Positions 44,872 to 61,798 are shown, counted from the stretch's first letter. The stretch is 64,000 bases of DNA from Candidatus Limnocylindrales bacterium (GCA_038322255.1 JBBQFS010000001.1:11729-75728); one strand, 5' to 3'. The notes: generated by a model not told the origin, from the letters alone. Made by a program: numbers and translations.

Positions 44872-45762
44872 ATGCGCGCGTCGCCCGACGAGGCAGCCCA
44901 GATACCGCTCGCCCCCGAGCTCCCGACCCGCCACGTCACCAGCACCAAGATCGTCGCGATCCGCGGCTCCGAGCTCGAGGTGCGCGACGACCTGGTCGTC
45001 GGCGAGGAGCCCCTCGAGATTCTCGCCGCCGGTCCCCGCCAGGAGGCGGTCCAGGTGGCGGTCACGATGCGCACCCCCGGCCACGAGGAGGACCTCGCGA
45101 TCGGCTTCCTCATGAGCGAGGGCCTGCTCGCGGGCAACGAGGTCAAGAGCGTTCAGTACGGCGACCCCGGGGTCATGGCCGAGCCCGACGACAGTGTCCT
45201 CGTCCGCCTGGCTCGGCGTTTCGACCCATCGCTCGTGGCCCAACGGAACTTCGTGGCCACGGCCTCGTGCGGCATCTGCGGCAAGGCCTCCATCGACGAC
45301 GTCGCGATCCGGTGCGAGCCGCTGCCAGAGAACCTGCCCGTCATCGCCCGGTCAGTCATTGCGTCGCTGCCGGATTCGCTGCGCGCGGCGCAGGCAGCCT
45401 TCGACCGAACCGGCGGGCTCCACGCGGCGGGCCTGTTCGAGACCGACGGTCGCGCCGTCGCCGTTCGTGAGGACGTGGGCCGACACAACGCGCTCGACAA
45501 GCTGATCGGCTCGCGATTGCGGGCCCGCGAGCTGCCGCTCTGGGATCGGCTTTTGATGGTTTCGGGCCGGGTGAGCTTCGAGATCGTGCAGAAGGCCGCG
45601 ATGGCCGGCATCCCGATGATCTGCGCCGTGTCGGCCCCGTCCGATCTCGCGGTCCGGCTCGCAGATCGCCTCGGTGTGACGCTCATCGGCTTCCTGCGCG
45701 GCGACGGCTTCAACGTCTACACCCACGACGGCCGCGTCGACCTTCGCGACCTCATGCGCTGA
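44872..45762 (+). CDS. fdhD: Formate dehydrogenase accessory sulfurtransferase FdhD
   Basis: Motifs VTMRTPGHEEDLAIGFLMSEGL, ATASCGICGKASID, DVGRHNALDKLIG and MVSGRVSFEIVQKAAMAGIPMICAVSAPS. Confidence 0.85.
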   Translation: MRASPDEAAQIPLAPELPTRHVTSTKIVAIRGSELEVRDDLVVGEEPLEILAAGPRQEAVQVAVTMRTPGHEEDLAIGFLMSEGLLAGNEVKSVQYGDPGVMAEPDDSVLVRLARRFDPSLVAQRNFVATASCGICGKASIDDVAIRCEPLPENLPVIARSVIASLPDSLRAAQAAFDRTGGLHAAGLFETDGRAVAVREDVGRHNALDKLIGSRLRARELPLWDRLLMVSGRVSFEIVQKAAMAGIPMICAVSAPSDLAVRLADRLGVTLIGFLRGDGFNVYTHDGRVDLRDLMR

Positions 45763-45829: not shown

Positions 45830-46681
45830 TCAGGGGCCGAGCGCGAGCGAGGCCTCCACCAGGCAGTGATCGCCCCGTGGCGGGCAGTCGATCGAGGTGC
45901 TGGTGGGGACCAGCTCCGGGCTAGAGAGGATCAGGTCGATCCGGAGCAGGCCGATCCCGAGGAAGGCGAACTGGCCGGGTCGCCAGCTCCATCCGGGTCC
46001 GATACCGGCCACGGCGTGGGCGTCGTTCAGGCCGTTCGTGAGCCGTCCGAACGCCGGCTCGGTCGGGGTCGTGTTGAAGTCGCCGATCAGCAGGACCCGA
46101 TCGCCGCCGGCCTCCAGCTCGAGAGCTCGGGCCCTGATCAGGCCGAGGTCGGCGTTGCGCTGGATCGGGTCATAGCCAGACGGGATCCAGGCCACGCGCT
46201 CGATCAGCGCCGGGAATGGATGGGCACCGAGGACGACGAGCTCCCCGTCGGGCAGGTTCACCCGGGTCTCGAGCCGCACCGGATCCTGCCTGTAGTCAGA
46301 CGACAGGATCGGGTAGACGCTGAGGAGGCCGATGCCGGTCACGCCTTCGGTCGGTGACATCGCCCGATAGGGATAGCGGTCCAGCAACGTTGGGTCGGAT
46401 TCGATCGCGGCCGCGACCGGCGGCGTCAGCTCCTCCAGGACGACCAGGTCGACCGGGTGCGGCAGCAGCATCGCGATCGCGTCGGGGCCGACCCGCGCGC
46501 CGGCCTCCAGGTTCCAGGTTGCGACGTCGACGTGCCTGCCGATCCCCGAGGTCGCAACCGATGGCGACCACCATTCGCCGCCAAAGCGAAGGCCGAAGAC
46601 CGCGGCGACGAGCAGCAGCGCCAGCCCAAGCGCTCTCGATCGAGTGAGCGCCGCGACGGGGAGGAGGACGAGGCCGGCCAA
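45830..46681 (-). CDS. Endonuclease/exonuclease/phosphatase (EEP) family protein with N-terminal TM segment
   Basis: TTG start at 46681. EEP motifs (VATWNLE, VVLEEL, LIGDFNTTP, DHCLV). Confidence 0.75.
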   Translation of the reverse strand: MAGLVLLPVAALTRSRALGLALLLVAAVFGLRFGGEWWSPSVATSGIGRHVDVATWNLEAGARVGPDAIAMLLPHPVDLVVLEELTPPVAAAIESDPTLLDRYPYRAMSPTEGVTGIGLLSVYPILSSDYRQDPVRLETRVNLPDGELVVLGAHPFPALIERVAWIPSGYDPIQRNADLGLIRARALELEAGGDRVLLIGDFNTTPTEPAFGRLTNGLNDAHAVAGIGPGWSWRPGQFAFLGIGLLRIDLILSSPELVPTSTSIDCPPRGDHCLVEASLALGP

Positions 46682-46829: not shown

Positions 46830-47879
46830 TCAGTCCCGGCGTGCGTTCGTGAACTCGAAGCCGAAGCGGCCCTTGATGCAGAGGTGGCCTTCGGTTACGG
46901 TCGAATCCATCGGCGAGGTGACCTTCACGATCGTGTTGTCCTGGACGTGGAGGTCGATCGCGCAGCCGACGCCGCAGTACGGGCAGATCGTCTGGGTCAT
47001 CGTCTGGGCCGACTCGTCCCACGTGCCTGCCTCGCGCATGTCGTACTCCGACTTGAACATCAGCGCACCCGTCGGACAGACGCCGATGCAATTGCCGCAG
47101 TAGACGCAGGCCGAATCGGGCAGGGGCGCGTCCCACTCCGTGGAGATTCGGGCATCAAAGCCGCGGCCCGCGACGGCGATCGCGAACGTGTTCTGGGCGT
47201 CCTCGCCACAGGCCTCGACGCACTTGTAGCAGAGGATGCACTTCGAGTAGTCACGCACGTAGAGGTTGTTATCGACCTTCACCGGCTGGGCGACGGACTC
47301 GGCCACGGACGCTTCTGGGCCGGCGGGGGCGTGGTGATGCCCGGGATCACGGTCATCGCGTTCGTGCGCGGCGGCGGAGCGAGCCGGCGGCCCGAATCTC
47401 AAAGGGTCGGCGCCGTACCGCGCCGCGTAGCGGGCCGCGTCGCCATCGGGCTCGCGAGGACCGGCGAGCGAGAGGTCGACCGACGAGCCGAGGAACTCGA
47501 GCACCACCTTCCGCGAGTGCTGGACGCGCTCGGATTCGGTCTGGATCTCCATGCCCTCCTCGACGCGGCGCGAGCACGCGGGAGCGAGCACGCGCGCCCC
47601 CTTGACCTCGACGACGCACACGCGACAGACGTTCACGGGAGTGAGATTCTCGAGGTAGCACAGGGTCGGGATGTCGAGGCCCTGGGCCCGGCAGGCGTCG
47701 AGGATGGTCGAGCCGGCGGGCACTTCGACCGCGACGCCGTCGATCGAGAGGCTGAGCCGCGCTGGGAGGGCGGCCGGCGGCGGGCCGGGGATGCGCGTCG
47801 CCCGGGCCGGCGGCGTCGTGTAGACGATGCCTGGTGGCGCCGTGTCCACCGCTCCCGGTTGCTGGGGGTCGTGGGTCAC
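46830..47879 (-). CDS. Formate dehydrogenase alpha subunit, N-terminal electron-transfer fragment (2Fe-2S ferredoxin-like, 2x[4Fe-4S] and the MopB-type CPYCGVGC cluster region), ending where the catalytic domain proper begins
   Basis: A GTG at 47879 overlaps the fdsB TGA (GTGA). Motifs: 2Fe-2S region LSIDGVAVEVPAGSTILDAC...CYLENLTPVNVCRVCVV; ferredoxin CxxCxxC (CILCYKCVEAC, CVYCGNCIGVCP); and TICPYCGVGCAIDLHV...GHLCIKGRFGFEF. Stop after ...FTNARRD. 349 aa. Confidence 0.8.
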   Translation of the reverse strand: MTHDPQQPGAVDTAPPGIVYTTPPARATRIPGPPPAALPARLSLSIDGVAVEVPAGSTILDACRAQGLDIPTLCYLENLTPVNVCRVCVVEVKGARVLAPACSRRVEEGMEIQTESERVQHSRKVVLEFLGSSVDLSLAGPREPDGDAARYAARYGADPLRFGPPARSAAAHERDDRDPGHHHAPAGPEASVAESVAQPVKVDNNLYVRDYSKCILCYKCVEACGEDAQNTFAIAVAGRGFDARISTEWDAPLPDSACVYCGNCIGVCPTGALMFKSEYDMREAGTWDESAQTMTQTICPYCGVGCAIDLHVQDNTIVKVTSPMDSTVTEGHLCIKGRFGFEFTNARRD

Positions 47880-49834
47880 AGCGCTGCCAGCTCCGGTTGG
47901 CGGATGGCCGACTCGATCGCCGACGAGGCCGTTTGCCCGAGCCCGCAGATGCTCGCGTCGCGCATCGCCCGGCCGATGTCGGCCAGGAGCACCAGTTCCT
48001 CCTCCCGGGTCCGGACCGCGACGCCGTCTGCCAGGCGCGAGAGGAGCTCCTCCTGGCGAACCGTGCCGACCCGGCAAGGCACGCACTGGCCGCACGACTC
48101 GTCGCGGAAGAACGCGGCGATCCGGCGCAGCGTACCCACGAGATCGGCGGTCTCGTCGAAGACCATCACCACGCCAGACCCCAGGGTCGCATTGATCTCG
48201 CGCGTGCCCTCGAACGTCAGTGGCGTGGCGAGCACCTCAGGCCCGACGAAGACGCCGGCCGCGCCGCCGAGCAGGATCGCGCGGATGGCGCGCCGCTCGG
48301 GCACGCCACCGCCCAGCTCGATGAGCTGGCCCAGGGTCGTCCCGAACGGGACCTCGTACACGCCTGCGCGCCCGACGTTGCCCGACAGGCAGAACAGCTT
48401 CGGCCCGGTTGAGCCCTCGCTGCCGACCTTCGCGAACCGGGCCCCGCCGCCGGGGCCGTCCTCGAGGATCGCGAGCACGTTAACGAGCGTCTCGACATTG
48501 TTGACCGCCGTCGGCTTGCCAAACAGCCCGAACTCGACGGGGAAGGGAGGCTTGTTGCGCGGCTCGCCGCGCTTACCCTCGATCGACTCGAAGAGCGCCG
48601 TCTCCTCGCCACAGATGTAGGCGCCCGCGCCGCGCCGGACCTCGATGTCGAAGGCGAGGCTCGATCCCGCGACCGAGGCGCCGAGGTAGCCGGCGGCTCG
48701 CGCCATCTCGATGGCGCCACCGATGCGCGATTCAGCGAGCGGATATTCGCCACGGATGTAGAGGTAGCCCTTGGACGCGCCCGTGGCGAAGCCCTCGATC
48801 GTCATGGCCTCGACAACCGCGAACGGGTCGAGCTCCATGAGCACGCGATCCTTGAACGTGCCCGGCTCCGACTCGTCGGCGTTGCACACGACGTAGTGGG
48901 GCTGCGCAGGCTGGGCGGCGACCGCGGCCCACTTGCGCCCAGTTGGGAAGGCCGCGCCGCCGCGGCCGAGGAGCCGGCTGTCGGTGACCTCGCCAAGCAC
49001 GGCATCGGCGCCCATTGCCAGCGCCTGCTCGAGGGCGCGGTAGCCGCGATGGGCGACGTAGTCGTCGAGCGAGCTGGGATCGGCCAGGCCGACGCGGCGG
49101 AGCAGCAGGAGCTGCGGCTGGCCGGTCTGGGGCACCGAGGCGTGCGCAGCGTCCCGGAAATCCGGTGCGGGCGGTGCGTGGCCATTGGTTTTGGCAGCCG
49201 CGGACCCTGTCCACTGGGCATTCGCGGCCGACGGGGCGTTCGCCGCCGAGGGGGCCGCGACCGCGCGCTCGAGCCGAGCGATCACGCCCGCGGCATCGAT
49301 CGGCGCGGCGGTCTCCCGGGTCGGCTGCTCGCCGGCGATCGTGAACATCGCGGCCGGCGCGAGCTCGCACAGCCCTAGGCACGGGCTGCGCAGCCAGCCG
49401 ATTCGGCCGTCGCCCGAGGGGGCTCCGGCGGGCCCGAGCGTCCGGCCCAGGTCGGCGCACAGCTCCTCGGCCCCGGCAAGACGGCAGGCGATGTCATCGC
49501 AGACGTGGGCGATGGCCGGCGGCCGCGGCTTCGTGGTGAAGAGGGCGTAGAACGTGGCGACACCATAGGCCTCGGCGGGCGGTACCGACAGGCGCCGGCA
49601 CACGTAGTTCAGGCCCGGCTGCGTGATCTGGCCGACCCGATCCTGCAGCGCGTGCAGCGCCGGCAGGAGGAGGTCGCGCCGGCTCCGGGCTTCGTGCCCG
49701 CCTCTCGCGACGTGCCCCTCGGTCATCGAGTCGCGCCCGCCGCCGCGCCAGCCGCTGTCGGCCGGCCCGAGCACCGCATCGACCGCCGCGCGCTCCCCGG
49801 GGGAAGCCAGCGGCCCGATGACGTGAAGGTCCAT
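47876..49834 (-). CDS. NAD-dependent formate dehydrogenase beta subunit: fused NuoE-like (2Fe-2S thioredoxin-like) and NuoF-like (FMN, NAD, 4Fe-4S) domains
   Basis: N-terminal NuoE/FdsG-like region (LLPALHALQDRVGQI...EAYGVATFYALF...RSPCLGLCELAPAAMF). NuoF motifs (GAGAYICGEETALFESIEGKRGEPRNKPPFP, CGQCVPCRVGT). Confidence 0.85.
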   Translation of the reverse strand: MDLHVIGPLASPGERAAVDAVLGPADSGWRGGGRDSMTEGHVARGGHEARSRRDLLLPALHALQDRVGQITQPGLNYVCRRLSVPPAEAYGVATFYALFTTKPRPPAIAHVCDDIACRLAGAEELCADLGRTLGPAGAPSGDGRIGWLRSPCLGLCELAPAAMFTIAGEQPTRETAAPIDAAGVIARLERAVAAPSAANAPSAANAQWTGSAAAKTNGHAPPAPDFRDAAHASVPQTGQPQLLLLRRVGLADPSSLDDYVAHRGYRALEQALAMGADAVLGEVTDSRLLGRGGAAFPTGRKWAAVAAQPAQPHYVVCNADESEPGTFKDRVLMELDPFAVVEAMTIEGFATGASKGYLYIRGEYPLAESRIGGAIEMARAAGYLGASVAGSSLAFDIEVRRGAGAYICGEETALFESIEGKRGEPRNKPPFPVEFGLFGKPTAVNNVETLVNVLAILEDGPGGGARFAKVGSEGSTGPKLFCLSGNVGRAGVYEVPFGTTLGQLIELGGGVPERRAIRAILLGGAAGVFVGPEVLATPLTFEGTREINATLGSGVVMVFDETADLVGTLRRIAAFFRDESCGQCVPCRVGTVRQEELLSRLADGVAVRTREEELVLLADIGRAMRDASICGLGQTASSAIESAIRQPELAAL

Positions 49835-50094
49835 CGAGTGAGGAGTCTAGCCCTGCCGCCGCGTCCACCGACCGCGGCCCGCCCGACCCGGCTGGGCATG
49901 CCGAAGTTCCGATCCGTGGGGACGCGCTTGTAATGGTCCTGAAATTGGTCCGGAGCCCTACGGGCGCTAACATCCGGCCACCGTCGCGCTCACACCAGTG
50001 ACAGAGGTGTCACTGCGCCCGACGCGCGTAGGAGACCAAAGGGCGCCTCCGTGGGGTCGTCGCTTCGCCGTGTTCGCGTCGACGTGGCCGGTCA

Positions 50095-50166
50095 GGTCGG
50101 TCGCGCGGTCGCCCGGTTCGCGCGGTCGCGCGGTCGCCCGGTTTCGCGCGGTCGCGCGGTCGCGCT
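50095..50166. repeat. Tandem direct repeat, about 25 bp x 2.6 (GGTCGCGCGGTCGCCCGGTT(T)CGCGC), within a 640-bp non-coding spacer
   Basis: Seen in the sequence. Not CRISPR-like: there are no unique spacers and the units are contiguous. Confidence 0.55.
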
Positions 50167-50478
50167 TGACCCGCCAAATGGGCACGCCTTGAGCAATTTC
50201 GGGGCTAAACCAGGGCTAAGCCCGGCTGAAGGCCGTGCACGTCCCCTCGGCCCGTAGCGGCGGCGCCGGATTCACGCTCAGGCTGCCGGCCGACGACCAT
50301 TCGCGACACGGTGCCACAGCGCGCGCAGGTGGCTAGGGCTCAGGTAGACCCGATTCTGATCACGGGGTGTGCATCCTCAGGCTCTAGATCCTTCCCACCC
50401 GGTTTTTCGCGGAGCCTCCTCGAATCAGCGGTACCGGGCGGCGCGTTCCACCTGCTTCGCGGGCCGTGAAGGCGCAGC

Positions 50479-50799
50479 TCAGCCGCCTGGCGCCTGGTAG
50501 CTGGGGTGCATGGAACGAGCCTTGTCGACCTCGTCCGCCGTCAGGAGGACCGTCGTCACGATGTGGGCCGCGCCGGTTGTCGCGACAGTCGTGGACAGCG
50601 CCGCCGCCGCAGCGTTGTCGGGCAGCTCGACGATGAGGATGACGTCGTACTTCCCGAACGACCAGTACATCGCCTCGAGCTTCCCGCCGAGGCTGCTGGC
50701 GGAGGCCTCGAGGGCCTTGATCCGGGTTGCCGCGCCGTCCTTCATCACCCCGGCGAGGCCCGCCTGGGTGTAGTTCGCCGAGAACAGGAAATGGGCCAT
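50479..50799 (-). CDS. GYD domain-containing protein
   Basis: GAGGTG RBS, then ATG. MAHFLFSANYTQAGLAGVMKDGAATRIKALEASASSLGGKLEAMYWSFGKYDVILIVELPD is a typical GYD-family sequence. Confidence 0.75.
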   Translation of the reverse strand: MAHFLFSANYTQAGLAGVMKDGAATRIKALEASASSLGGKLEAMYWSFGKYDVILIVELPDNAAAAALSTTVATTGAAHIVTTVLLTADEVDKARSMHPSYQAPGG

Positions 50800-50858
50800 G
50801 TCGCACCTCGTCCATGGGCGCTCATGCGCCTCCCGGGCATCCTACACGCGTAACCGGT

Positions 50859-52784
50859 TCAGGCCGGAATCGGCGCCGGGAGCTTCTCGACGCGGATCGC
50901 CGTCGCCTTGAACTCGGCCGTGCCTGACTTCGGGTCGGTAGCGTCGATCGTCAGGACGTTCGTGGCGACCTCATCCTGGAAGTGCAGGGTCATGAAGGTC
51001 AGGCCGGGACGCAGGCTGTGATCGATCCGGACCGGCGCCTCGATCGAGCCGCGACGCGAGGTTATCCGGACGCGCTCGCCGTCGATCAGCGAGAACCGCG
51101 CGGCGTCCTCGGGCGAGATGTCCAGCGACTCGCCGCGCCGCAGGGGCGACGTGTAGCCGCTCGACTGGACGCCGGTGTTGTACGAGTCGAGCCGCCGGCC
51201 GGTCGTGAGCCGGATCGGAAAGTCGTCGTCGAGCTTGTCGACCGGCGGGTCGTGGTCGACCGCGACGAACGGCGCCCGCAGCCCCGGCACCGGGTCCTCC
51301 CAGAGGCGCGAGTGCAGGAACAGCTCGCCCGGATGGGTCTCGTCCCAGCACGGCCACTGGATTCCGCCGAGCGACTCGAGCCGGGCGTAGGTCATGCCGC
51401 GATGGACGGGCGACAGCGACCGCAGCTCGTCCCAGGTCCTCTCGGCCGAGGCTTCGCCCCAGTCGCTGCCCATCCGCCGGGCAAGCTCGTAGATGATCCA
51501 GAGGTCCTCGCGTGCCTCGCCCGGTGGGTTCATCGCCCTGCGGACGCGCTGGACGCGGCGCTCCGAGTTCGTGACCGTCCCCTCGGATTCGGCCCACGCC
51601 GCGGCGGCCGGCAGCACCACGTCGGCGATCTGGGCCGTCGCGGTCAGCAGCAGGTCCTGCACGACGAGGAAATCGAGGCCGCCGAGGAGCCGCTTGGCCC
51701 GCTGCTGGTCGGCCTCGGACTGGACGGGATTCTCGCCGATGACGTAGACGGCGCGGAGCTCGCCCTCCTCCATGGCGTCGAACATCTGGGAGAGGTGCCA
51801 GCCGCGCCGCGCCGGGACCGTGACGCCCCAGGCTTCGTCGAACTTCGATCGGAGGGCCTCGTTCTCGACGTACTGGAAGCCAGGGAGTCGGTCGGGGAGG
51901 GCGCCCATGTCGCCGCCTCCCTGGACGTTGTTCTGGCCCCGGAGCGGGTTGAGGCCGCTGCCGTACTTCCCGACATGCCCGCAGAGCAGCGCGAGGTTGA
52001 TCAGCGCCAGCACGTTGTCGACCGCGTTGTGGTGTTCGGTGATGCCGAGCGTCCAGCAGATCATCGCCTTGTCGGCGGTCGCGAAGGCGTGGGCCAGCTC
52101 CTGGATCGCGGAGGCGGGCACGCCCGTCTCGCGCTCCGCGTACTCGAGCGTGTACGACTCGACCTTGGCCCGGTAGGCCTCGAAATCTGACGTCGCGCGC
52201 TCGATGAACTCGGTGTTCGCCAGGCCGGCGTGGATGATCTCGCGCCCGATGGCGTTCGCGAGGGCGATGTCAGACCCGACGTCGAGCCCCAGCCAGACGT
52301 CGGCCCACTCGGCCGAGCTCGTCCGGCGCGGGTCGACCGCGTAGAGCCGGGCGCCGTTGCGGACGCCGCGCAGGAGGTGGTGGAAGAAGATCGGATGCGT
52401 CTCCCGGGCGTTGCTGCCCCAGAGCACGATCAGGTCCGTCTCTTCAGCCTCGCGATATGAGCTGGTTCCGCCACCAGCGCCGAACACGGTCGCCAGACCG
52501 GCGACAGATGGCGCGTGTCAGGTGCGGTTGCAGCTGTCGATGTTGTTGCTGCCCAGGACCTGCCGGGAGAGCTTCTGGGCCGCGAAGTTGACCTCGTTGG
52601 TCGCCTTCGAACAGCTGAAGATCCCAATCGGGGTTCGCGCGTCCGCGGTGGCCTTGGCGGCCAGCGCGGCGCGGAATCCGGCGACGGTCCGGTCGAGCGC
52701 CTCGTCCCAGGTGGCCGGGCGGAGCTCGCCGCCCTTCGTGTCGCGCACGAGGGGCTGGGTCAGGCGAACGTACGACTTCGGCAA
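50859..52784 (-). CDS. Formate dehydrogenase alpha subunit, molybdopterin (Mo-bisPGD) catalytic fragment, selenocysteine-containing (in-frame TGA at 52518-52520)
   Basis: GGAGGA RBS 4 nt before the TTG at 52784 (MPKSYVRLTQPLVRDTKGGELRPATWDEALD...). Continues ...LGSNNIDSCNRT-TGA-HAPSVAGLATVFGAGGG..., matching the FdhF/FdsA Sec/Cys active-site context (…NN.D.CAR.U.HGPSVAGL). The downstream 540 aa are a full MopB domain plus the molybdopterin-binding C-domain. 641 codons if TGA is decoded. Confidence 0.8.
52489..52505 (-). other. Putative bacterial SECIS hairpin (GUCGCC-GGUCU-GGCGAC) 12 nt 3' of the in-frame UGA
   Basis: On the mRNA: UGA-CACGCGCCAUCU-GUCGCCGGUCUGGCGAC. A 6-bp stem with a GGUCU apical loop, similar in position and loop sequence to the E. 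coli fdhF SECIS apical stem-loop. Confidence 0.55.
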
Positions 52785-52988
52785 GGGTCCTCCGTGCCTT
52801 CTCGTGGCCGTCGATCGGCCGCGTTCGTCGCCGGCTGCTGCCGGTCCGGCCAGTGTAGCGAGGCACCCGCCGAGTGCCGGGTGCCAGCTCGGGCCGTCTC
52901 GGCGGAGAGGCCCCGGCCCGTCCGGCCCGCCCGGTTGGTTGTGGCCAGTTCGGACCGGCTCGGACGTCCGTGGCGATTTTTCCGCCAC

Positions 52989-53753
52989 CTAGGTCCGCCT
53001 GGGGCCACCGACGCGCCGCGCGACGATGTTGAGGCGGACGTAGTCGAGCTTCGCCTCGGGCATGCGCGCGGCGACCGCCTGCACGAAGGGCTTCCGCTCT
53101 CCGGGTGGCAGCTCGGCGAGGAAGGTCCGAAGGCAGACCGTCTCGAGGAACGACTCGAAGGGCTCGCCGGGATCGAAGTGCGTCGGCTCGTCGGAGAGCC
53201 AGGTCTCGATCTCGACGAAGCCGCTCCTCTCGAGCCGCGCCCGCGTGGCCTCGGGCGTCTCGAAGCGGTGCTCCCGGTGGAAGCCTGGATGGACCTCGAG
53301 GGCGGTGTCGAGCAGCGCGGCGACGTTGCCGGCGCCGCCGCACTGGGCCACGAGCCAGCCGCCGGGACGCAGGACGGCGGCGAGATTCGCAAAGAGCGCG
53401 TCGTGATCGAGGACCCAGTGGAAGGTCGCCGTCGACAGGATCGCGTCGACGTTGGCGGCGAGCGGGAGCCGTAGCGGGCGGGCGAGGTCCGCCTCGACGT
53501 AGTCCACCTGCTCGCCGAATCTCGCCAGCCGTCCACGCGCCTCCGCGAGCATCGACGCCGACGCGTCGAGCGCGACCACGCGCCCGTGCGGCAACCGCCC
53601 GAGCAGCATCTCGGTGACGCGTCCCGTGCCGCACCCTGCGTCGAGGACCGTCTCGTCGCCGTCGAGCGGCAACCGATCGAGGACCGCCGCGCCCCAGCGC
53701 GCCTGCGGGTCGGCGACCCGATCGTACGCTCTCGCATTCCAGTCGCCGGTCAT
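52989..53753 (-). CDS. Class I SAM-dependent methyltransferase (trans-aconitate methyltransferase Tam-like)
   Basis: MTGDWNARAYDRVADPQARWGAAVLDRLPLDGDETVLDAGCGTGRVTEML parallels the Tam N-terminus (DWN..Y, V.D.GCG.G). Confidence 0.8.
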   Translation of the reverse strand: MTGDWNARAYDRVADPQARWGAAVLDRLPLDGDETVLDAGCGTGRVTEMLLGRLPHGRVVALDASASMLAEARGRLARFGEQVDYVEADLARPLRLPLAANVDAILSTATFHWVLDHDALFANLAAVLRPGGWLVAQCGGAGNVAALLDTALEVHPGFHREHRFETPEATRARLERSGFVEIETWLSDEPTHFDPGEPFESFLETVCLRTFLAELPPGERKPFVQAVAARMPEAKLDYVRLNIVARRVGGPRRT

Positions 53754-53760: not shown

Positions 53761-54288
53761 CTATGGCATCACCCAGCGCGCCGGTGGCACCTCGACCGCG
53801 AGGACGGTTGCGTTCCACGGCGGTGGCGTCGATCCCGGGATGTCGAGGTCGGTCGGCAAGTCGAGCCCGAGCACGACGACGGCAACCTTCTCGGAACCCG
53901 AGAAGCTGACCCAGGCGTGCATGAACTGGCCAGGTCGCACGACGGGGCCGTAGCACGGCGGCATCGATCCGCCACCCGGCCAGAACACCGCGCAGAAGAA
54001 GGGCCCCGGCTCGATGGCGATCCGGTCGATCGGCAGCCGGACCGGGGCGATCGCGAGCTCGACGGCCATCGTCGCCGAGGGACATGGGTCGCCGGAAAGG
54101 GTCGATGGCAACGGCAGCGGCTCGATGCGGCAGGCGACCAGTCGGGTCGAATGCAACGGACCCGCGGGGGTTGCGTCGGAAGCCGGCCGACCGAATCCCA
54201 GGGCGACCGCAAGGGCGACGGCCAGCGGAACCGTGATCCCGGCAAGCAGCACGGCGATGCCGAGCCACCCACCGCGCCGAGAGGTCAC
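53761..54288 (-). CDS. Hypothetical membrane-anchored protein (175 aa)
   Basis: A GTG at 54288 overlaps the selD TGA stop (GTGA). N-terminal TM (GGWLGIAVLLAGITVPLAVALAVALGF). No family recognised. Lies 8 nt upstream of the methyltransferase start. Confidence 0.45.
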   Translation of the reverse strand: MTSRRGGWLGIAVLLAGITVPLAVALAVALGFGRPASDATPAGPLHSTRLVACRIEPLPLPSTLSGDPCPSATMAVELAIAPVRLPIDRIAIEPGPFFCAVFWPGGGSMPPCYGPVVRPGQFMHAWVSFSGSEKVAVVVLGLDLPTDLDIPGSTPPPWNATVLAVEVPPARWVMP

Positions 54289-55391
54289 GCGAGGGCGACG
54301 GCCGCGAGTGTCGCGGCTTCGACGCGGCCGATCGTCCAGCTGGACACGCCTGCAGCACGTAGCGCGCTTTCGACCGCTGGCGCCCCGCGCGCGGGAATGG
54401 CGGCGAGGAGACCGCCCGAGGTTTGCGGGTCGTGGGCGAGGGTGACGACTTCTCCCGAGACGTCGCCGCCAACGGTCAGGGCCGGCGCGACGAACCGGCG
54501 GTTGTTGGCGGCCCCGCCGGTCTCCACGCAGTCACGCGCGAGGTCGAGGGCGCCATCCAGCGCCGGGAGCGCCGACGCGTCGAACACGAACTTCGTTCCT
54601 GAGGCTCGAGCCATCTCGAGGCCGTGGCCCAGGAGGCCGAAGCCGGTGACGTCGGTCGCCCCGCGGATGCCGTGCGCGACGAGCACCTCCGCTGCCGCGC
54701 GGTTCAACGCGCGCATGGAGTCGACGGCCGCCGCGAGCTCGTCGTCGCTCGTCCGACCCTGCCGGCGCCCGCTCACGAGCAGCCCGGTCCCGAGCGGCTT
54801 CGTGAGCATCAGGAGGTCGCCCGGCCGCGCGCCTCCCTTGCGCAGCAGGTGATCGGGCGAGGCAACCCCGACAACGGCCAGGCCGTATTTCGGCTCCTTG
54901 TCCCGGATCGTATGGCCGCCTGCGAGAAGCCCCCCGGCTTCGCGGACCTTCGATGCCGCGCCGTCGAGGATCGCCCGGAACGCGTAGCTCGGCATGTCCT
55001 CCGGGATCGCGGCGACCGAGAGCGCGAACAGGACCCGGCCGCCCATCGCGAAGACGTCCGACAGGGCATTCGCCGCCGCGATCTCGCCGAAGGTGCGAGG
55101 GTCGTCGACGATCGGGGGGAAGAAGTCGAGCGTCCCGATGACGGCGACGCCGGGCGCAACCAGGTGGACGGCGGCGTCGTCCGGCGGGTCGAGCCCGGCG
55201 ATGAGGCCGGTCGAGCCCTCGGTCGCCGACCGGTGGTCGTGACCGTAAACCGCGTCAACGTCGTCGATGCCGAGCCCGGCGAGCGCCTCGGCCAGAGCGT
55301 CAGCCCCGAGCTTCGCCGCACAGCCGCCGCACGTCGTCAGCTCCGTCAAACGGATGGGCGGGAACGTCAGCTCGGGAAGCTGGGACGGCAT
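54285..55391 (-). CDS. selD: Selenide, water dikinase (selenophosphate synthetase)
   Basis: ATG at 55391. IRLTELTTCGGCAAKLG (Cys form), DDAAV..., GTLDFFPPIVDDPRTFGEIAAANALSDVFAMGG, GGHTIRDKEPKYGLAVVGV and TDVTGFGLLGH align with E. coli SelD. The 5' part of the track ORF (to 56084) is rejected. Confidence 0.9.
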   Translation of the reverse strand: MPSQLPELTFPPIRLTELTTCGGCAAKLGADALAEALAGLGIDDVDAVYGHDHRSATEGSTGLIAGLDPPDDAAVHLVAPGVAVIGTLDFFPPIVDDPRTFGEIAAANALSDVFAMGGRVLFALSVAAIPEDMPSYAFRAILDGAASKVREAGGLLAGGHTIRDKEPKYGLAVVGVASPDHLLRKGGARPGDLLMLTKPLGTGLLVSGRRQGRTSDDELAAAVDSMRALNRAAAEVLVAHGIRGATDVTGFGLLGHGLEMARASGTKFVFDASALPALDGALDLARDCVETGGAANNRRFVAPALTVGGDVSGEVVTLAHDPQTSGGLLAAIPARGAPAVESALRAAGVSSWTIGRVEAATLAAVALA

Positions 55392-55490
55392 GTGGGCGAT
55401 GGTAGGACGCAGCCCATTGACCGTCGGCGCGGTGGCCGCGACGATGCCGCGAACCCGCACTTCTGACGCGGGCCCTTGGGAGGGCAGGCG

Positions 55491-56507
55491 ATGACCGACC
55501 TCGCGACCGAGCGCGACCTTGTGACGGTCCCGAAAGTGGAGCTGCACATCCACCTGAACGGCTCGATCACCGAGGCGACGGCGTCCGAGCTGGCGCGCCG
55601 CCACGGTGCCGATCCAGCGGAAACCCTGATCCTGCGCGACGGCCGCTACCCCGGCAGCTACCCGGACTTCAAGGCGTTCCTCGACGTCTACATGGCCGCG
55701 AACGCCTTCGTTCGGACGCCGGAGGACCTGGAGTTCGTCGCGGCCGAGTTTGCCGAGGGGCAGGCCGCCCAGAACATCGTCTACTCCGAGGCGATCTTCA
55801 CGGCGATGATCTATGCCCGGAACGGGATGGATCCGACGGCGATGTGGGCCGCGCTCCAACGGGGCCTCGCAGCTGCCGGGCCTAACACGCGCATTGGACT
55901 GGTGGTCGATGCGATCCGCGACTTTGGCCGGGCTGAAGGGGACGCCACGCTCAAACTCGTCGAGGGCGCTGACGCCCCGATCGTCGGTCTCGGCCTGACC
56001 GGAATCGAGGGCACGGTTCCGGTCGAGGAGTTCCTTTCTTTCCGGGCCGCTGCGCGACGGCTCGGGCTCGGTTTCGAGGTCCACGCCGGCGAGATGGGCC
56101 CGCCTGAAAGCATCGTCGAGTCACTCGATGTGCTGGAGGCGGATCGGATCGGCCACGGCGTCGCGGCCATCGGCGACTCGGCACTCCTGGAGCGACTGGT
56201 GCGCGACCAGGTCGTGCTCGACGTCTGCCCATCATCGAACATCGGGGTGGGTCTCTTCCCGTCGCTCGACGCACACCCAGTGGCGGAATTTTGGAAGGCC
56301 GGCGTGAACATGACGATCTCCAGCGACGACCCGCCGTTCATGAGAACGACCCTGACTGATGAGCTCCGCCACGTCGTCCGACTGGCCAGGCTATCGCGGA
56401 ACGACCTCGCTGAGCTCCAGCGGAGAGGCGCACGTGCGGCGTTTGCCAGTGATGCGACGCAGGGCGAGCTGCTGGCGCTGATCGACGAGTGGGCGGGCGG
56501 CACTTGA
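55491..56507 (+). CDS. add: Adenosine deaminase
   Basis: GGGAGGG RBS, then ATG at 55491. Metal-binding motifs (VELHIHLNGS, EVHAGE, SSDDP). Confidence 0.85.
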   Translation: MTDLATERDLVTVPKVELHIHLNGSITEATASELARRHGADPAETLILRDGRYPGSYPDFKAFLDVYMAANAFVRTPEDLEFVAAEFAEGQAAQNIVYSEAIFTAMIYARNGMDPTAMWAALQRGLAAAGPNTRIGLVVDAIRDFGRAEGDATLKLVEGADAPIVGLGLTGIEGTVPVEEFLSFRAAARRLGLGFEVHAGEMGPPESIVESLDVLEADRIGHGVAAIGDSALLERLVRDQVVLDVCPSSNIGVGLFPSLDAHPVAEFWKAGVNMTISSDDPPFMRTTLTDELRHVVRLARLSRNDLAELQRRGARAAFASDATQGELLALIDEWAGGT

Positions 56508-57253: not shown

Positions 57254-57324
57254 CAGCGCGCAGCGTCGTCACGCGGCCGGAGGCCGACGGACACTCCGGC
57301 GCGAGACCTTCACTACGATGTTCC

Positions 57325-57421
57325 GGGAGCGGAGGGGTCCCGGTGGGCTTCCTCGTCTTCAAAACGAGTGGCGCGGCGCTCGGCGTCGCGCGGTGGGTTC
57401 GACTCCCATGCGCTCCCGCCA
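57325..57421 (+). tRNA. selC: tRNA-Sec (selC), anticodon TCA
   Basis: 97 nt. The acceptor stem GGGAGCG(G)/(G)CGCTCCC has 7 bp plus a G-G at position 8. D-region CCCGGTGGGC. Anticodon loop CTTCAAA with TCA at 57359-57361. Long variable arm. T-arm GGTGGGTTCGACTCCCAT is identical in loop to E. coli selC. Discriminator G and CCA are encoded. Sits immediately upstream of selA. Confidence 0.8.
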
Positions 57422-57470
57422 GCGCGGCTGCACCAGCGAGGACGATCGAGCCGATGACCGGATCGAGCCG

Positions 57471-58922
57471 ATGACGAGAGAACGGCGGCCCCCCAGCGTC
57501 GACGCGATCCTGCGTGCCGCGGCGCCGGGCCTCGACGGGCGCGACCACGAGGCGGTCGTCCTCGTGGCACGCGAGGTCGTGGCGGGGGAGCGGGCGCGGC
57601 TCGCGGGCGGCGGCCCTGGGGCGGCCGCGGCGAAGCTCGCCGACGAGCTGCGCGAACGCCTCGAGGCGCTCGAGGGGGGAAGCGATGAGGCAGGCGCGCG
57701 GGCCGCCGGCTCCGGGCTTCAGCCCGTCATCAACGCGACCGGCGTGATCCTGCACACGAACCTCGGGCGCGCGCCGTGGCCCGACGCGGCGATCAAGGCA
57801 GGCCAACTGGCCGCGAGCGGTCCCTCGATGCTCGAGCTCGATGCCGACTCGGGGCGCCGGGGCCGGCGCTTCCGGGCGGTCGAGGATGAAGTCGTCGCAT
57901 TGACCGGCGCCGACGACGCGCTGGTCACCAACAACAATGCCGCCGCGGTTGCGCTTGCGGTCGGGCTCGCGGGGCGCGGCGGCGTTGCGGTCTCGCGTGG
58001 TGAGCTCGTCGAGATCGGTGGCGGCGTCCGGATTCCGGAGATCGTGCGCCGCGCGGGCGCCCGCCTCCTCGAGGTGGGCACGACGAATCGCACCCGCGTC
58101 GCCGACTTCGAAACGGCCCTCGTCGAAGGCCGCGCGAAGCTCGTCTTGCGCGTCCATCCCTCGAACTTCACCCAAACCGGGTTCGTGGAATCGCCGGACG
58201 ACGCGGAGCTCGCGGCGGTGGCCCACCGTCACGGGGCCCTGGTGGTCGACGACCTCGGGTCGGGCGCCCTACTCGACACGGCGCGATTCGGTCTCGCCCA
58301 CGAGCCGATGCCGCGCGAGCGCCTCGAAGCGGGTGCTGACCTCGTGACATTTTCCGGCGACAAGCTCGTCGGTGGGCCTCAGGCCGGGATCATCGCTGGC
58401 CGCGCCGATCTCGTGGAACGGCTGCGGCGCGACCCCCTGGCCCGCGCGATGCGCCCGGACAAGGTCGTCCTCGCGGCGCTGGCTGCGACGCTCAGGCTGT
58501 ACCGAGCCGGGGTCGCGCACACCGCCATCCCGATCTGGCGCCAGATTGCGGCACCACTCGACGGGCTCGAACGACGCGCGACCGACGTCCTCGCGGCGCT
58601 CACCGGCGGCGCGTCCCTGCTCAACGCCGACGCCTCGCCCGGGACCCGCGGCGTCACGCTCGGCGTCGAGCCGACCGAGTCGACCATCGGCGGCGGCTCG
58701 CTGCCCGGGCAGACGCTCGCGTCCTGGGCAGTCGTCATCGTCGGTCCGCCGCCGCAGCGCCTGCTCGCCGCGCTTCGGGACGGGCACCCGCCGGTGATCG
58801 GCCGGGTGGTCGACGACGCGGTCGTGCTCGACTTTCGAACGGTAGAGCCACGCGACGACAAGCGATTCGCCGACGCCGTTCGGGCAGCGATTCTGTCGAC
58901 CTCACCGCCCCTGCGGGGTTGA
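57471..58922 (+). CDS. selA: L-seryl-tRNA(Sec) selenium transferase
   Basis: ATG at 57471 (MTRERRPPSVDAILRAA...). PLP-lysine region FSGDKLVGGPQAGIIAG. INATGVILHTNLGRAPW. Confidence 0.9.
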   Translation: MTRERRPPSVDAILRAAAPGLDGRDHEAVVLVAREVVAGERARLAGGGPGAAAAKLADELRERLEALEGGSDEAGARAAGSGLQPVINATGVILHTNLGRAPWPDAAIKAGQLAASGPSMLELDADSGRRGRRFRAVEDEVVALTGADDALVTNNNAAAVALAVGLAGRGGVAVSRGELVEIGGGVRIPEIVRRAGARLLEVGTTNRTRVADFETALVEGRAKLVLRVHPSNFTQTGFVESPDDAELAAVAHRHGALVVDDLGSGALLDTARFGLAHEPMPRERLEAGADLVTFSGDKLVGGPQAGIIAGRADLVERLRRDPLARAMRPDKVVLAALAATLRLYRAGVAHTAIPIWRQIAAPLDGLERRATDVLAALTGGASLLNADASPGTRGVTLGVEPTESTIGGGSLPGQTLASWAVVIVGPPPQRLLAALRDGHPPVIGRVVDDAVVLDFRTVEPRDDKRFADAVRAAILSTSPPLRG

Positions 58923-58929: not shown

Positions 58930-59145
58930 ATGGACGCGACCACGGCGTTCGGCGTCGCGGCCCTCAGCTTCATGATGCTGATGTATGCGCTGGAACGGCG
59001 CGGGCGCGTCTTCGTCCTCGCATTCGCAGCGGGGTGCGCCCTCTCGAGCGCCTACGGATTCGCGTCTGGCGCCTGGCCGTTCGGCGTTGTTGAAGCCATC
59101 TGGACGGTCATCGCGCTCCGTCGCTACGCCACGGACCCGAGCTGA
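58930..59145 (+). CDS. Hypothetical small membrane protein (71 aa, 2 predicted TM helices)
   Basis: ORF between selA and selB. Its TGA overlaps the selB ATG (TGATG). No RBS upstream. No family recognised. Confidence 0.35.
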   Translation: MDATTAFGVAALSFMMLMYALERRGRVFVLAFAAGCALSSAYGFASGAWPFGVVEAIWTVIALRRYATDPS

Positions 59146-61076
59146 TGCATGACCCCAACGTCGGGCCGACCGTCGTCATCGGCACCGCCGGCCACATCGA
59201 CCACGGCAAGACGAGCCTCCTGCGCGCGTTGACCGGCATCGACGCCGACCGGCTGCCCGAGGAGCAGGCCCGGGGCATGACGATCGACGTCGGATACGCC
59301 CATCTCACGTTCGGCGATGGCGTCGAGCTCGACTTCGTCGACGTGCCGGGGCATGACCGCCTGATCGGCAACATGCTCGTCGGAGCGGGCGAGGTCGACG
59401 CGGCGATGGTCGTCGTCGCCGCCGACGATGGGCCTCGGCCGCAGACGCTGGAGCACCTGCAATTGCTCGACGCGCTCGGCATCGACGAGGGTCTCGCGGT
59501 GGTGACGAAGGTCGATGCGGTCGACCCGACGAGAGTCACGGAGGTCGTGAGCGCCGTGACCGCGCTCCTCGCCGTGACATCGCTCCGTGGTTCTCCCGTT
59601 CTCCCGGCATCGTCGGTGACAGGAGAGGGGATCGAGGCGGTTCGAACGGCGCTTCGATCTGTGCGTGACGGGGTTGCTGCGCGATGGTCGGCGGTTGGGC
59701 TGCCACCTCACGGCGCGGGCCCGCTCCGGCTCGCAGTCGACCGCGCCTTCGCGGTCAAGGGTCGGGGCGCGGTTGTCACAGGGAGCCTTCGCGGCGGCGC
59801 GCTGGAATCCGGAGCGACGCTCCGGCGCGAGCCAGGCGGTGAATCGATCCGCATTCGCGAGGTCCAAGTGCACAGCCATGCGCGGGATCGTCACGACGGC
59901 GGCCGGACGGCGCTCAACGTGGTGGGGCTGCCGGTCGAGTCCCTACGGCGTGGCGACGTGCTGACGAGCGGACCCGGTGTGCTCGGGAGCGATCGGATCC
60001 TCGTCGAGCTTCGGCCGCCAGCCCGCGTTGGGCCAGCGACGGCTCGTCCACCGAAGGTCGGCGCTCGACTCCGACTGCACGTCGGCACCGATAAGGCCGA
60101 GGCGACGCTCCGGCTGGTTCGCGCGCGCCCGAGTGCGGCGATCCTGACCCTGGAGCGACCAGTTGCGACATTCGTGGGCGATCGAGCAATCCTTCGGGAG
60201 CCAGCGTCGGGGGACGTCGTCGCCGGCGTTCGCGTCCTCGACCCGCGACCGCCTCGGGGCCCTTCGCGACGTCGCTTGACCGCTGCACGCCTTCAGGTCC
60301 TGTCGGCGGCGGTCGAAACGGGCGACGTCAGCGCGACTTGGTCGGCTCGCGTCGAGTTGCACGGGGCCATCGCGCTGGCGTCATCGCTTGACGGCGGAGG
60401 TCGAGGGCCGACGGCGCCGAATCTGGCGCTCGCGGCCGACGTGCGAACCGCGCTTGAGGAGGCCGCCCTCGAGGCCGTGACCGCGCAGCATCGCGAGGCG
60501 CCACTTCGTCCGGGTCTGGCACTCCCGCGCGCGCGCGCCGCGCTCCTCCGGCGGCTCCGCTCCCTCGCGACCATCGAGCGCCGCGACGCCGAGGCTGCGG
60601 GATCGGCCGTTGCCGGCGTGCTCGACCACCTCGTCGAGCAGGGCTTGCTTGTCCGGCAGGGCGAGGCGCTGCGCGATCCGTCCCGCGGCTCAGAGCTGCC
60701 GCCGGACCTGGTCGCCGCGATGGATCGGCTCGAATCAGCCCTCGCGATCGCCGCGCCGCCGCCGCTCGAAGCCGCGGCGCTCGAGGCTGGCTGCCCAACC
60801 GAGGGCATTCGCGCGCTCCAGGCCGCCGGGCGCATTGTTCGACTCGGGCCGGATCTCGCCTGGGCGACGCCGACGTTCCACCGCCTCGCGGCCGTCGCCC
60901 TCGACCGATCGCGCCAGGCGCCGCTCACGCCCGCGGCCTACCGGGACGCGACCGGGACCAGCCGGCGCTACGTGCTCGCCATCCTCGAGGACCTGGATCG
61001 GCGCGGAATCCTGCAGCGAACCCCCGAGGGCCACATTCCCGGCCCTCGGGCTCCGCGGGCGGAGCCGGTCGCGTGA
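59145..61076 (+). CDS. selB: Selenocysteine-specific translation elongation factor
   Basis: G-domain motifs (IGTAGHIDHGKTSL, DVPGH, TKVD). Long C-terminal winged-helix region. 643 aa. Confidence 0.9.
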   Translation: MHDPNVGPTVVIGTAGHIDHGKTSLLRALTGIDADRLPEEQARGMTIDVGYAHLTFGDGVELDFVDVPGHDRLIGNMLVGAGEVDAAMVVVAADDGPRPQTLEHLQLLDALGIDEGLAVVTKVDAVDPTRVTEVVSAVTALLAVTSLRGSPVLPASSVTGEGIEAVRTALRSVRDGVAARWSAVGLPPHGAGPLRLAVDRAFAVKGRGAVVTGSLRGGALESGATLRREPGGESIRIREVQVHSHARDRHDGGRTALNVVGLPVESLRRGDVLTSGPGVLGSDRILVELRPPARVGPATARPPKVGARLRLHVGTDKAEATLRLVRARPSAAILTLERPVATFVGDRAILREPASGDVVAGVRVLDPRPPRGPSRRRLTAARLQVLSAAVETGDVSATWSARVELHGAIALASSLDGGGRGPTAPNLALAADVRTALEEAALEAVTAQHREAPLRPGLALPRARAALLRRLRSLATIERRDAEAAGSAVAGVLDHLVEQGLLVRQGEALRDPSRGSELPPDLVAAMDRLESALAIAAPPPLEAAALEAGCPTEGIRALQAAGRIVRLGPDLAWATPTFHRLAAVALDRSRQAPLTPAAYRDATGTSRRYVLAILEDLDRRGILQRTPEGHIPGPRAPRAEPVA

Positions 61077-61798
61077 ACCGACGGCCCGACCGACGGCCCG
61101 ATGGATCGCCGGATCCTCCAAGCGTGTCGGCCCCGCTCCGGCAGGCCGTCACGGCGATCGTGCTGGCAGGCGGTCGTTCGTCGCGGTTCGGCGGCCCGAA
61201 GCTCGTCGTCGAGCTTGACGGCGCGACCCTCCTCGACCGCGCCGTGCGCGCGGTCCAATCCGTCGCCACGTTTGTCATCGTCGCTGGTCCGGAGCCCGCG
61301 GCGCGGTTGGGTTCGTCCACCCCGCGACGTCGCCTTGGCGCTGCTGGCGACGCCCCGGCTTCGTCCGTCCGGTTCGTCGACGACGACCAGCCATTTGCCG
61401 GCCCGCTCGCGGCGCTCGCCGGCGCGCTCCGCGAGACCTCGACCGAGCTCGCCATCATCGTCGGTGGCGACATGCCGGGCCTCGTGCCCGCCGTGCTCGC
61501 CGCGATGCTGGACAACCTCGCGTCGGACCTCACTGTCGATGCGGTCCACCTCGCCGGCGTGACAGAGCCCCCGCATCGGGAGGTCCTCCCGCTCGGGCTC
61601 CGAGTCGCACCGGCCGCGAAGGCCGCCGTCGCGCGCCTGGGAAACGGCGATCGCTCGCTCGTGCGCCTCCTTGACCGCCTTCGGACCGTCGAGATTCCGG
61701 CCACCGAATGGTTGGCTCTCGACCCGGCCGGCCGGACCCTCCTGGACGTCGACGAGCCGAGAGATCTGGAGCGTTGGGACGCAGGCGAGATTCGCTGA
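61073..61798 (+). CDS. mobA: Molybdenum cofactor guanylyltransferase
   Basis: A GTG overlaps the selB TGA (GTGA). N-terminus TAIVLAGGRSSRFGGPKLVVELDG is the MobA NTP-transferase signature. Confidence 0.8.
   Translation: MNRRPDRRPDGSPDPPSVSAPLRQAVTAIVLAGGRSSRFGGPKLVVELDGATLLDRAVRAVQSVATFVIVAGPEPAARLGSSTPRRRLGAAGDAPASSVRFVDDDQPFAGPLAALAGALRETSTELAIIVGGDMPGLVPAVLAAMLDNLASDLTVDAVHLAGVTEPPHREVLPLGLRVAPAAKAAVARLGNGDRSLVRLLDRLRTVEIPATEWLALDPAGRTLLDVDEPRDLERWDAGEIR

Follow-up and report, generated by a model that had tools for sequence, protein, structure and literature searches.

A 64,000-nucleotide stretch of the genome of a Candidatus Limnocylindrales bacterium (GCA_038322255.1, JBBQFS010000001.1:11729-75728), referred to here as the window, contains three minus-strand genes that likely specify a conserved three-polypeptide, cytoplasmic, selenocysteine (Sec)-containing molybdenum or tungsten (Mo/W) formate dehydrogenase (FDH) of the NADH-dehydrogenase-linked (FdsABG/Fdh1AB) kind. 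The FdsA-type α subunit is divided between the two outer genes, one for a catalytic Mo subunit (52784..50859) and one for an iron-sulfur (Fe-S) subunit (47879..46830) that carries the proximal [4Fe-4S] cluster, FS0, at its C-terminus, and between them lies fdsB (49834..47876), a fusion of NuoE- and NuoF-like sequences. The original prediction had described the outer genes as relocated fragments of one gene. Judged by sequence comparison, the split FDH is a conserved design common to many uncultured soil and groundwater bacteria, and no recent rearrangement of this genome lies behind it. Assembly of the subunits, the electron path, the NAD(P)+ partner and the catalytic direction are predicted features of the enzyme.

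The comparisons presented here draw on 80 related loci found by scanning one genome per GTDB species, together with two more obtained from look-ups; phylum labels are those of metagenome-assembled genome (MAG) record titles, and some of those on short contigs may be binning errors. Counts of gene order take the 61 loci with both partners in view.

Architecture of the split enzyme

The Fe-S subunit (349 amino acids, aa) has the composition of the N-terminal module of NuoG and FdsA, with one [2Fe-2S] cluster, two ferredoxin-type [4Fe-4S] motifs of the form CxxCxxCxxxC and a C-terminal FS0 (Pfam Fer2_4, Fer4/Fer4_Nqo3 and Molybdop_Fe4S4), and its best matches in the Protein Data Bank (PDB) are to FdsA residues 7-305. 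Its GTG start codon overlaps the fdsB stop codon as GTGA. The Molybdop_Fe4S4 domain occupies aa 294-345 (46845..47000, minus strand) and covers profile positions 3-54 of 55; the protein stops four residues past this match, ending in ...GHLCIKGRFGFEFTNARRD. The FS0 ligands are C299, C302, C306 and C334, accompanied by Lys336 (CIKG), and these five residues, the [2Fe-2S] ligands and both CxxCxxCxxxC motifs are invariant in alignments of 10 and of 50 sequences. HoxU and NuoG models of NCBIfam match the N-terminal part of the protein, and identity to the N-terminal parts of fused forms is only 25-38%.

The Mo gene comprises 641 codons, including one in-frame UGA (Sec), and begins with a TTG preceded by GGAGGA-CCC. 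In its product, the Pfam Molybdopterin profile (PF00384, 2e-67) aligns from its first position at aa 7, and Molydop_binding (PF01568, 7e-26) lies at the C-terminus. The chain begins six residues ahead of its RLTxP motif, and this short stretch contains no Cys motif, hence no FS0; as predicted from its translation, the Mo protein is a polypeptide without an Fe-S cluster of its own that begins at the molybdopterin domain. The FDH α-subunit model TIGR01591 scores 640.6 bits on profile positions 53-672 and misses its cut-off of 666 because positions 1-52 sit on the other polypeptide, with positions 1-50 matching the Fe-S protein at 53.5 bits. PDB searches matched the Mo protein to FdhF of the hydrogen-dependent CO2 reductase (HDCR) at 9e-141 and to Escherichia coli FdhF at 4e-136, and its SCNRT-U-HAPSV and NPLRGQNNVQG segments align to those of FdhF that hold the Sec-His pair and the active-site Arg (..NPVRGQNNVQG..); we take the Sec-His pair to be the counterpart of U140-H141 in FdhF. 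The two molybdopterin domains, the profile match, the Sec-His pair and the Arg are together those of an FDH of the Mo/W-bis-pyranopterin guanine dinucleotide (bisPGD) type.

The two α-subunit pieces meet at the same point by every measure used. On FdsA of Rhodobacter capsulatus (RcFdsA; 6TG9/6TGA, 9WXB), aa 23-344/346 of the Fe-S protein correspond to residues 7-303/305 and aa 7-634 of the Mo protein to residues 308-933, and in fused representatives matched by both parts the N-terminal match typically ends at about aa 343-348 and the C-terminal match, which lies a few residues further downstream, in most cases begins at aa 7. We conclude that the two predicted fragments abut, without overlap, at the boundary between the FS0 and molybdopterin domains, as had been proposed and as is borne out on Pfam, RcFdsA, TIGR01591 and the fused representatives alike. 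A tblastn search of the 64 kb revealed no other FDH-like or FS0-like sequence, in agreement with the claim that no FDH-like remnant follows the stop of the N-terminal fragment. The gene coordinates, end sequences, TTG start and GGAGGA Shine-Dalgarno (SD) sequence first reported all match the translation and sequence; the catalytic fragment keeps its start and ribosome-binding site and is not the plain open reading frame (ORF) it was taken for, since it contains an in-frame TGA (52520..52518), because of which an ORF finder yields two pieces, 52988..52518 and 52487..50859. Its end lies about 1.0 kb upstream of the start of fdsB and about 3.0 kb upstream of the start of the Fe-S gene, rather than 2.7 kb upstream as first given.

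Several features of the in-frame TGA mark the Mo gene as a selenoprotein gene. The codon lies in the motif SCNRT-U-HAPSVAGL, falls at the position of Sec (X) in the alignment with E. coli FdhF and is kept in 57 of 57 scorable homologous Mo genes. Starting 12 nt past the UGA is a hairpin, GUCGCC-GGUCU-GGCGAC (52489..52505, minus strand), which is likewise kept in all 57 genes; several Actinomycetota-labelled loci have the compensatory variant GUGGUC/GGCCAC, and the wobble variant GUCGUC/GGCGAC is also present. When folded by minimum free energy, the 71 nt that follow the UGA were not significantly stable (z = -1.3), with the region paired differently and no simple hairpin, and the call of a Sec insertion sequence (SECIS) therefore rests on conservation and compensatory change. 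The element is best described as SECIS-like, and it resembles the SECIS loop of E. coli fdhF. In-frame UGA and downstream hairpin are accompanied in the window by selA, selB, selC and selD.

The fdsB product (652 aa) contains the Pfam domains 2Fe-2S_thioredx (PF01257), Complex1_51K (PF01512), SLBB and NADH_4Fe-4S (PF10589), is matched by the NuoF and NuoE models of NCBIfam, and aligns to 7e5z_B at 2e-91. It thus supplies the NuoE/NuoF component of an FdsABG/Fdh1AB-type FDH, and, among the loci that include upstream sequence, nearly all have the gene adjoining that for the Fe-S subunit. Its PDB matches, to FDH β subunits and NuoF, end at aa 645-646, and neither Pfam nor these matches gave any sign of an extra C-terminal ferredoxin domain or Fer4. 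An additional C-terminal 2x[4Fe-4S] ferredoxin domain on the NuoF-like subunit marks the bifurcating, HydB-type members of this group; an electron-bifurcating FDH of the Bfu/HydABC type was considered and rejected, as the fdsB protein ends right after NADH_4Fe-4S and has no Fer4.

One cluster of FdsA has no counterpart in the Fe-S subunit. PF10588, which describes the His-ligated [4Fe-4S] cluster (HxxxCxxCxxxxxC), matches neither this protein nor any listed homologue, so that the equivalents of His117, Cys121, Cys124 and Cys130 (cluster A4 of RcFdsA, the N5 motif of NuoG) are missing. Where this cluster would be, there is a Cys-free segment (aa 130-205, window 47270-47490) with an invariant ERD...GHH...P...VxQPxKxDN pattern across phyla, the second half of which AlphaFold2 predicts with low confidence. 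Because some fused FdsA-type representatives are also without the His-ligated cluster, its loss is not tied to the split. Radon et al. placed A4 off the pathway from the bis-MGD cofactor (bis-molybdopterin guanine dinucleotide) to flavin mononucleotide (FMN), at the dimer interface (PMC7171172), and its absence therefore need not interrupt electron flow. The missing A4 may nevertheless remove coupling between protomers.

Lys336 of the Fe-S subunit corresponds to Lys44 of E. coli FDH-H, at which only the conservative K44R substitution stayed active, at 7% of wild type, while K44E and K44M lost >90% of the cluster (PMC12176258). We propose that Lys336 acts as the equivalent of FdhF Lys44 and would be supplied in trans. 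Formate would be oxidised, or CO2 reduced, at the Sec-ligated Mo/W-bisPGD of the 641-residue subunit, and the first electron acceptor would be FS0 on the C-terminus of the Fe-S subunit, docked in place of FdhF residues 1-60. From FS0 the electrons would pass through the two [4Fe-4S] clusters, the [2Fe-2S] cluster, the NuoF [4Fe-4S] cluster and FMN to NAD(P)+, and the reverse path might also be used. What the split might gain is more speculative: a cluster-free selenoprotein could be matured by FdhD before docking, or modules could be exchanged.

Conservation of the split and competing explanations

In all 61 informative loci the Mo gene, the NuoEF fusion and the Fe-S gene follow one another in this order on one strand, so that two genes with fdsB in between stand in each of them in place of the single α chain of FdsABG/Fdh1AB-type enzymes. 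The gap from the Mo gene to fdsB measures 3-124 bp in 28 of these loci and 0.2-7 kb in the other 33. Tight spacing is found mostly under the labels Actinomycetota, Isosphaeraceae/Gemmata (Planctomycetota), Rokubacteria, Acidobacteriota and Eisenbacteria, and in several loci labelled Chloroflexota; nearly all loci with the wider gap are labelled Chloroflexota or Limnocylindria. The genes inserted between the Mo gene and fdsB vary by locus (GYD, a cold-shock domain gene, SnoaL, a peptidase and others), and on this comparison the gap of ~1 kb in the window is one case among many in which an operon that is otherwise conserved has taken up an insertion. The FDH maturation gene fdhD is often directly upstream in tight-gap loci and neighbours the operon in most of the related loci. 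The window is closest to MAGs of Chloroflexota or Candidatus Limnocylindrales (81-87% identity), some of the related loci come from contigs of 0.2-2.4 Mb, and the identities of all three genes drop in parallel across loci.

The stand-alone state of the two α-subunit pieces is equally consistent. At least 120 clusters of stand-alone Fe-S homologues were listed (78-95% identity, 324-394 aa), all ending in PF04879 and none with PF00384, and a multi-phylum profile and a planctomycete query each returned at least 120 more homologues of the same architecture; among the matches listed in the three lists, >350 stand-alone homologues of 310-394 aa were without PF00384. The N-type ORFs that were examined stop 5-30 residues past CIKGRFG. 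At the aligned start of the Mo gene, a start codon (ATG, GTG or TTG) with an SD-like sequence is present in 46 of 55 loci, and in no locus examined was there space upstream of the Mo gene for an FS0 domain, or any trace of one; by tblastn, each related locus has one FS0 and one FS0-less Mo gene. Ratios of nonsynonymous to synonymous substitution (dN/dS) against the three closest loci (L001, L003 and L006) were 0.18-0.23 for the Mo gene, 0.15-0.23 for fdsB and 0.17-0.19 for the Fe-S gene; by this measure all three genes are under purifying selection. No FdsD-type small subunit was noticed in the operons, in which no search aimed at FdsD was made.

As a separate observation, one Limnocylindrales MAG (L041) holds the split three-gene FDH beside a canonical fused FdsA-type FDH on the opposite strand. 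The two loci span 2122-8441 and 9517-14504; the fused FDH shows 32% and 45% identity and is accompanied by a NuoF-like gene, and TGA is found at both Sec sites.

The only serious rival explanation is that the two halves belong to different enzymes, with FdsB and the Fe-S subunit forming a diaphorase module for another partner and the Mo protein working alone or with other redox partners. The gene and 644-bp spacer that stand between the units in the window would fit this explanation, as would the four loci that have no Mo gene within 8 kb and the solitary Fe-S gene of a fifth; in addition, the Mo subunit lies closest to an enzyme of the FdhF type (54% identity, L083), but the Fe-S subunit to the N-termini of FdsA. 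However, the FS0 domain has no known role apart from a molybdopterin domain, and each locus pairs one FS0 with one FS0-less Mo gene. The three genes also form an operon with gaps of 3-124 bp in 28 loci, their identities fall in parallel, and Lys336, whose FdhF equivalent is essential, is invariant. We consider this explanation unlikely.

A few observations do weigh against a single three-subunit enzyme. The Mo gene was not within 8 kb upstream in four Chloroflexota-labelled loci (L023, L024, L039 and L055), and in a Chthonomonadaceae MAG (L082, 9986-10996) the Fe-S gene had no fdsB or Mo gene within 10 kb; linkage of the genes is therefore not obligatory. The AlphaFold2 model of the Fe-S subunit, built with 50 homologues, was poor, with a mean predicted local distance difference test (pLDDT) score of 64 and Fe-S domains below 50. 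NAD(P)+ is probably the partner of the split FDH, an assignment that comes down to the homology of the NuoE/F fusion, and complex formation, expression and formate:NAD(P)+ activity are likewise predicted. Cultured members were absent from the about 360 listed homologues and the 80 species representatives, all of which are metagenomic or MAG sequences.

A second possibility, that the Mo protein is another Mo/W-bisPGD enzyme placed on an NADH module, for example an assimilatory nitrate reductase, draws on matches to the NasC, NasA and NapA models at 390, 358 and 274 bits. The 640.6 bits of TIGR01591 lie far above these, the Sec-His pair and the Arg of RGQNNVQG align to FdhF, and fdhD is adjacent, which makes this reading quite improbable.

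Less probable still is a recent rearrangement, misassembly or decay by which a continuous fdsA was broken and one half moved, although the gene order is unusual relative to canonical fdsGBA and a GYD gene and a tandem-repeat spacer separate the halves. The same split and order recur in all 61 loci, from many independent assemblies including the contigs of 0.2-2.4 Mb, and starts and stops are clean and conserved, dN/dS is 0.15-0.23 and there are no remnants of the missing halves. The transposition or recent duplication and loss invoked in the original prediction to explain relocated fragments is thus contradicted by an invariant order that takes the form of a tight operon in several phyla. What survives of a local rearrangement is the lineage-specific insertion of the GYD gene and spacer; the gene order itself is the family standard. 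A third option raised at that time, a two-polypeptide FDH with FS0 and Mo on different chains, is the one upheld, with the split point, start and stop conserved across dozens of species-level genomes, the ligands invariant and dN/dS low. The argument for maintained function rather than decay gains from the same ratios and from the clean, conserved start and stop. A synteny comparison, suggested at that time as a check, showed the uniform order Mo, NuoEF, Fe-S in the 61 informative loci.

Finally, rejoining of the halves by trans-splicing, a split intein or programmed read-through, suggested by the exact abutment of the two sequences, has a negligible probability, as the C-terminal half is encoded upstream of the N-terminal half with the whole of fdsB between them, Pfam found no intein or Hint domain in either piece, the tails of the N-terminal piece vary from 5 to 30 residues past FS0, and the C-terminal piece has its own conserved start and SD sequence.

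Spacer, neighbouring genes and the selenocysteine island

A GYD-domain gene (50799..50479, minus strand; Pfam GYD, 1.3e-23) and a non-coding spacer of 644 bp (49835..50478) are inserted after the Mo gene in the window, and the three-subunit enzyme is therefore probably produced here from two transcription units. A scan for consensus promoters and terminators over 46.5-53.2 kb found nothing, so these units are ones that we infer. The GYD gene occurs at this position in some Chloroflexota-labelled loci only (L001, L004, L005, L010, L020, L026, L035 and L048), at 52-56% identity, and is missing from the tight operons; its dN/dS against L001 is 0.63, and it is probably not part of the enzyme.

The spacer, originally described as 640 bp long and repeat-rich, has approximately that length, but the second description is too strong for a single 26-bp tandem repeat of 2.6 copies (50098..50163, unit CGGTCGCGCGGTCGCCCGGTTCGCG), which was found nowhere else in the window. 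It also contains a perfect palindrome, AGTGACA-N4-TGTCACT (49997..50014), about 165-180 nt upstream of fdsB. The same palindrome stands about 190 nt upstream of fdsB in L001 (7919-7936) and is absent from the other related loci, and the similarity of the spacer to related loci is confined to 50 nt around it, shared with L001 only. The palindrome might serve the unit of fdsB and the Fe-S gene as an operator or as part of a promoter. No Rfam family was detected in the spacer.

On the minus strand, a methyltransferase gene (53753..52989) is the first of the region, upstream of the Mo gene, and a gene of the endonuclease/exonuclease/phosphatase family (46681..45830) lies downstream of the Fe-S gene. 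Convergent with the latter, on the plus strand, is fdhD (44980..45762, start approximate), which encodes an FDH maturation protein of the FdhD/FdsC type (Pfam FdhD-NarQ, 5e-65).

A complete Sec set and a MobA-like gene are located at 54285-61798, less than 10 kb from the FDH genes. They comprise selD on the minus strand (selenophosphate synthetase; 54285..55400, start approximate; Pfam AIRS and AIRS_C), whose translation shows the motif CGGCAAKLG, and four genes on the plus strand: that for tRNA-Sec (selC; 57323..57421; ARAGORN anticodon TCA, Rfam RF01852 at 69.2 bits), selA within the ORF 57318..58922 (Pfam SelA, 2.5e-113), selB (59145..61076; GTP_EFTU with SelB wing and beta-barrel domains) and the gene for a MobA-like nucleoside triphosphate (NTP) transferase (61073..61798; NTP_transf_3). 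The Sec, molybdenum cofactor (Moco) and FDH genes together form an island. At its E-value threshold, an Rfam search of 44.0-58.5 kb returned only tRNA-Sec and one chance-level match, and no Moco riboswitch. The Sec codon, the SECIS-like hairpin, the adjoining Sec machinery and the missing His-ligated cluster had not figured in the original prediction.

Relationship to known formate dehydrogenases and implications

The modules of the split FDH are those of the FdsABG(D) enzymes of R. capsulatus and Cupriavidus necator (6TGA, 6TG9), namely NuoE-like [2Fe-2S], NuoF-like FMN/[4Fe-4S], NuoG-like N-terminal [2Fe-2S] and two [4Fe-4S], FS0 and Mo-bisPGD. The Fe-S and Mo proteins together retrace R. 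capsulatus FdsA over residues 7-305 and 308-933, and a maturation gene of the FdhD/FdsC type is present in both systems. In FdsABG(D), however, FdsA is one chain of 958 aa rather than a pair of chains divided where FS0 meets the Mo domain, FdsG and FdsB are separate rather than fused, and cluster A4 is present. The active-site ligand of the R. capsulatus enzyme is Cys, whereas it is Sec here. The tungsten enzyme FDH1 of Methylorubrum extorquens (Fdh1AB; 7E5Z, 7VW6) and the Moorella-type NADP-linked FDH resemble the split FDH in their NuoE/NuoF fusion β subunit and in being soluble and NAD(P)-linked, but in FDH1 the α subunit, FS0 included, forms one chain of ~990 aa, encoded with its partner by two genes rather than three. 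Relative to FdsABG/Fdh1AB as a whole, the split FDH differs in three features, the single α chain, the location of FS0 on the catalytic chain and the His-ligated cluster.

The best matches of the Mo subunit are monomeric, Sec-containing FDHs of the FdhF type (E. coli FDH-H, 1FDO; HDCR FdhF, 7QV7; 1e-136 to 1e-141), which share its U-H and Arg motifs but carry their own N-terminal FS0 (residues 1-60) with Lys44 and have no NuoE/F/G-type partners. HoxU and NuoG modules offer a parallel for a stand-alone Fe-S subunit beside a NuoE/F-type flavoprotein, although the Fe-S protein here has FS0 and no His-ligated cluster. HoxU is not known to carry a Molybdop_Fe4S4 domain, and it keeps the His-ligated cluster.

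The position of the Mo subunit in sequence space was examined by an exhaustive HMMER search of 1.84 billion cluster representatives with the part of the protein that follows Sec. The top full-length match (P0121, 63% identity) is encoded immediately upstream of an fdsB homologue (L084). The next (P0122, 54% identity; L083), the nearest relative found that is not split, is a Sec enzyme of the FdhF type. It has an FS0 of its own and the motif DSCNRT-U-HAPSV, with fdhD upstream and no NuoE/F/G genes alongside. All other full-length matches (at least about 500 aa) had identities of 45% or less and were FdsA-type proteins of ~900 aa, FdhF-type proteins of ~690 aa or longer fusions, and the matches above 54% other than P0121 were partial (208-521 aa). 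The Mo subunit of the split family thus appears to be a distinct group among the representatives. Possible origins of the family are the duplication of an fdsA-fdsB unit followed by partial loss, the fission of one gene, or the recruitment of an FdsA N-terminal fragment by an FdhF-like Mo protein. A further Mo-domain representative, P0259 (620 aa, 36% identity), also lacks FS0 and opens at this boundary (MIHHGDRLQKPLL...), but the active-site position (TAARFYYAPG) is occupied by neither Cys nor Sec. P0259 might represent a second lineage without FS0, in this case non-catalytic, or might result from an error of gene calling.

In the literature searched, an FDH divided at the FS0/Mo boundary was nowhere described, an absence that is not proof of novelty. 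We give an even chance to the proposal that this is the first recognised natural case, among Mo/W-bisPGD enzymes of the dimethyl sulfoxide (DMSO) reductase superfamily, of FS0 and the essential Lys being provided in trans, in a clade that always uses Sec and has three genes in the order Mo, NuoEF, Fe-S. With only moderate confidence, the same clade can be called widespread, extending by MAG label over uncultured Chloroflexota, Actinomycetota, Planctomycetota, Acidobacteriota, Rokubacteria and other lineages of soil and groundwater. If the complex forms, FS0 and the catalytic Mo/W domain would be separable without loss of function, whereas every FDH compared has both on one chain. A small, cluster-free selenoprotein could then be expressed and matured apart from the Fe-S/flavin module, or the module could be swapped, which bears on FDH engineering for CO2 reduction. 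The split FDH is less dramatic than a relocation event would have been; it is notable for specialists in molybdoenzymes and for the annotation of formate metabolism in uncultured soil bacteria.

Public gene calls cut the Mo subunit at the UGA into pieces of ~80-100 aa and ~495-550 aa (L001 1144-3102, L002 5592-7523, L084 403-2325), and the labels given to the Fe-S subunit are "2Fe-2S iron-sulfur cluster-binding protein", "YjgC" and "HndD", which amounts to a systematic mis-annotation of the family by automated pipelines. With the Fe-S subunit mislabelled and the Mo gene in two ORFs, the formate-oxidising capacity of abundant uncultured soil lineages is probably under-counted. The lineages that carry the split FDH are presumably largely aerobic, and a strictly Sec-dependent FDH in them bears on selenium dependence in soils.

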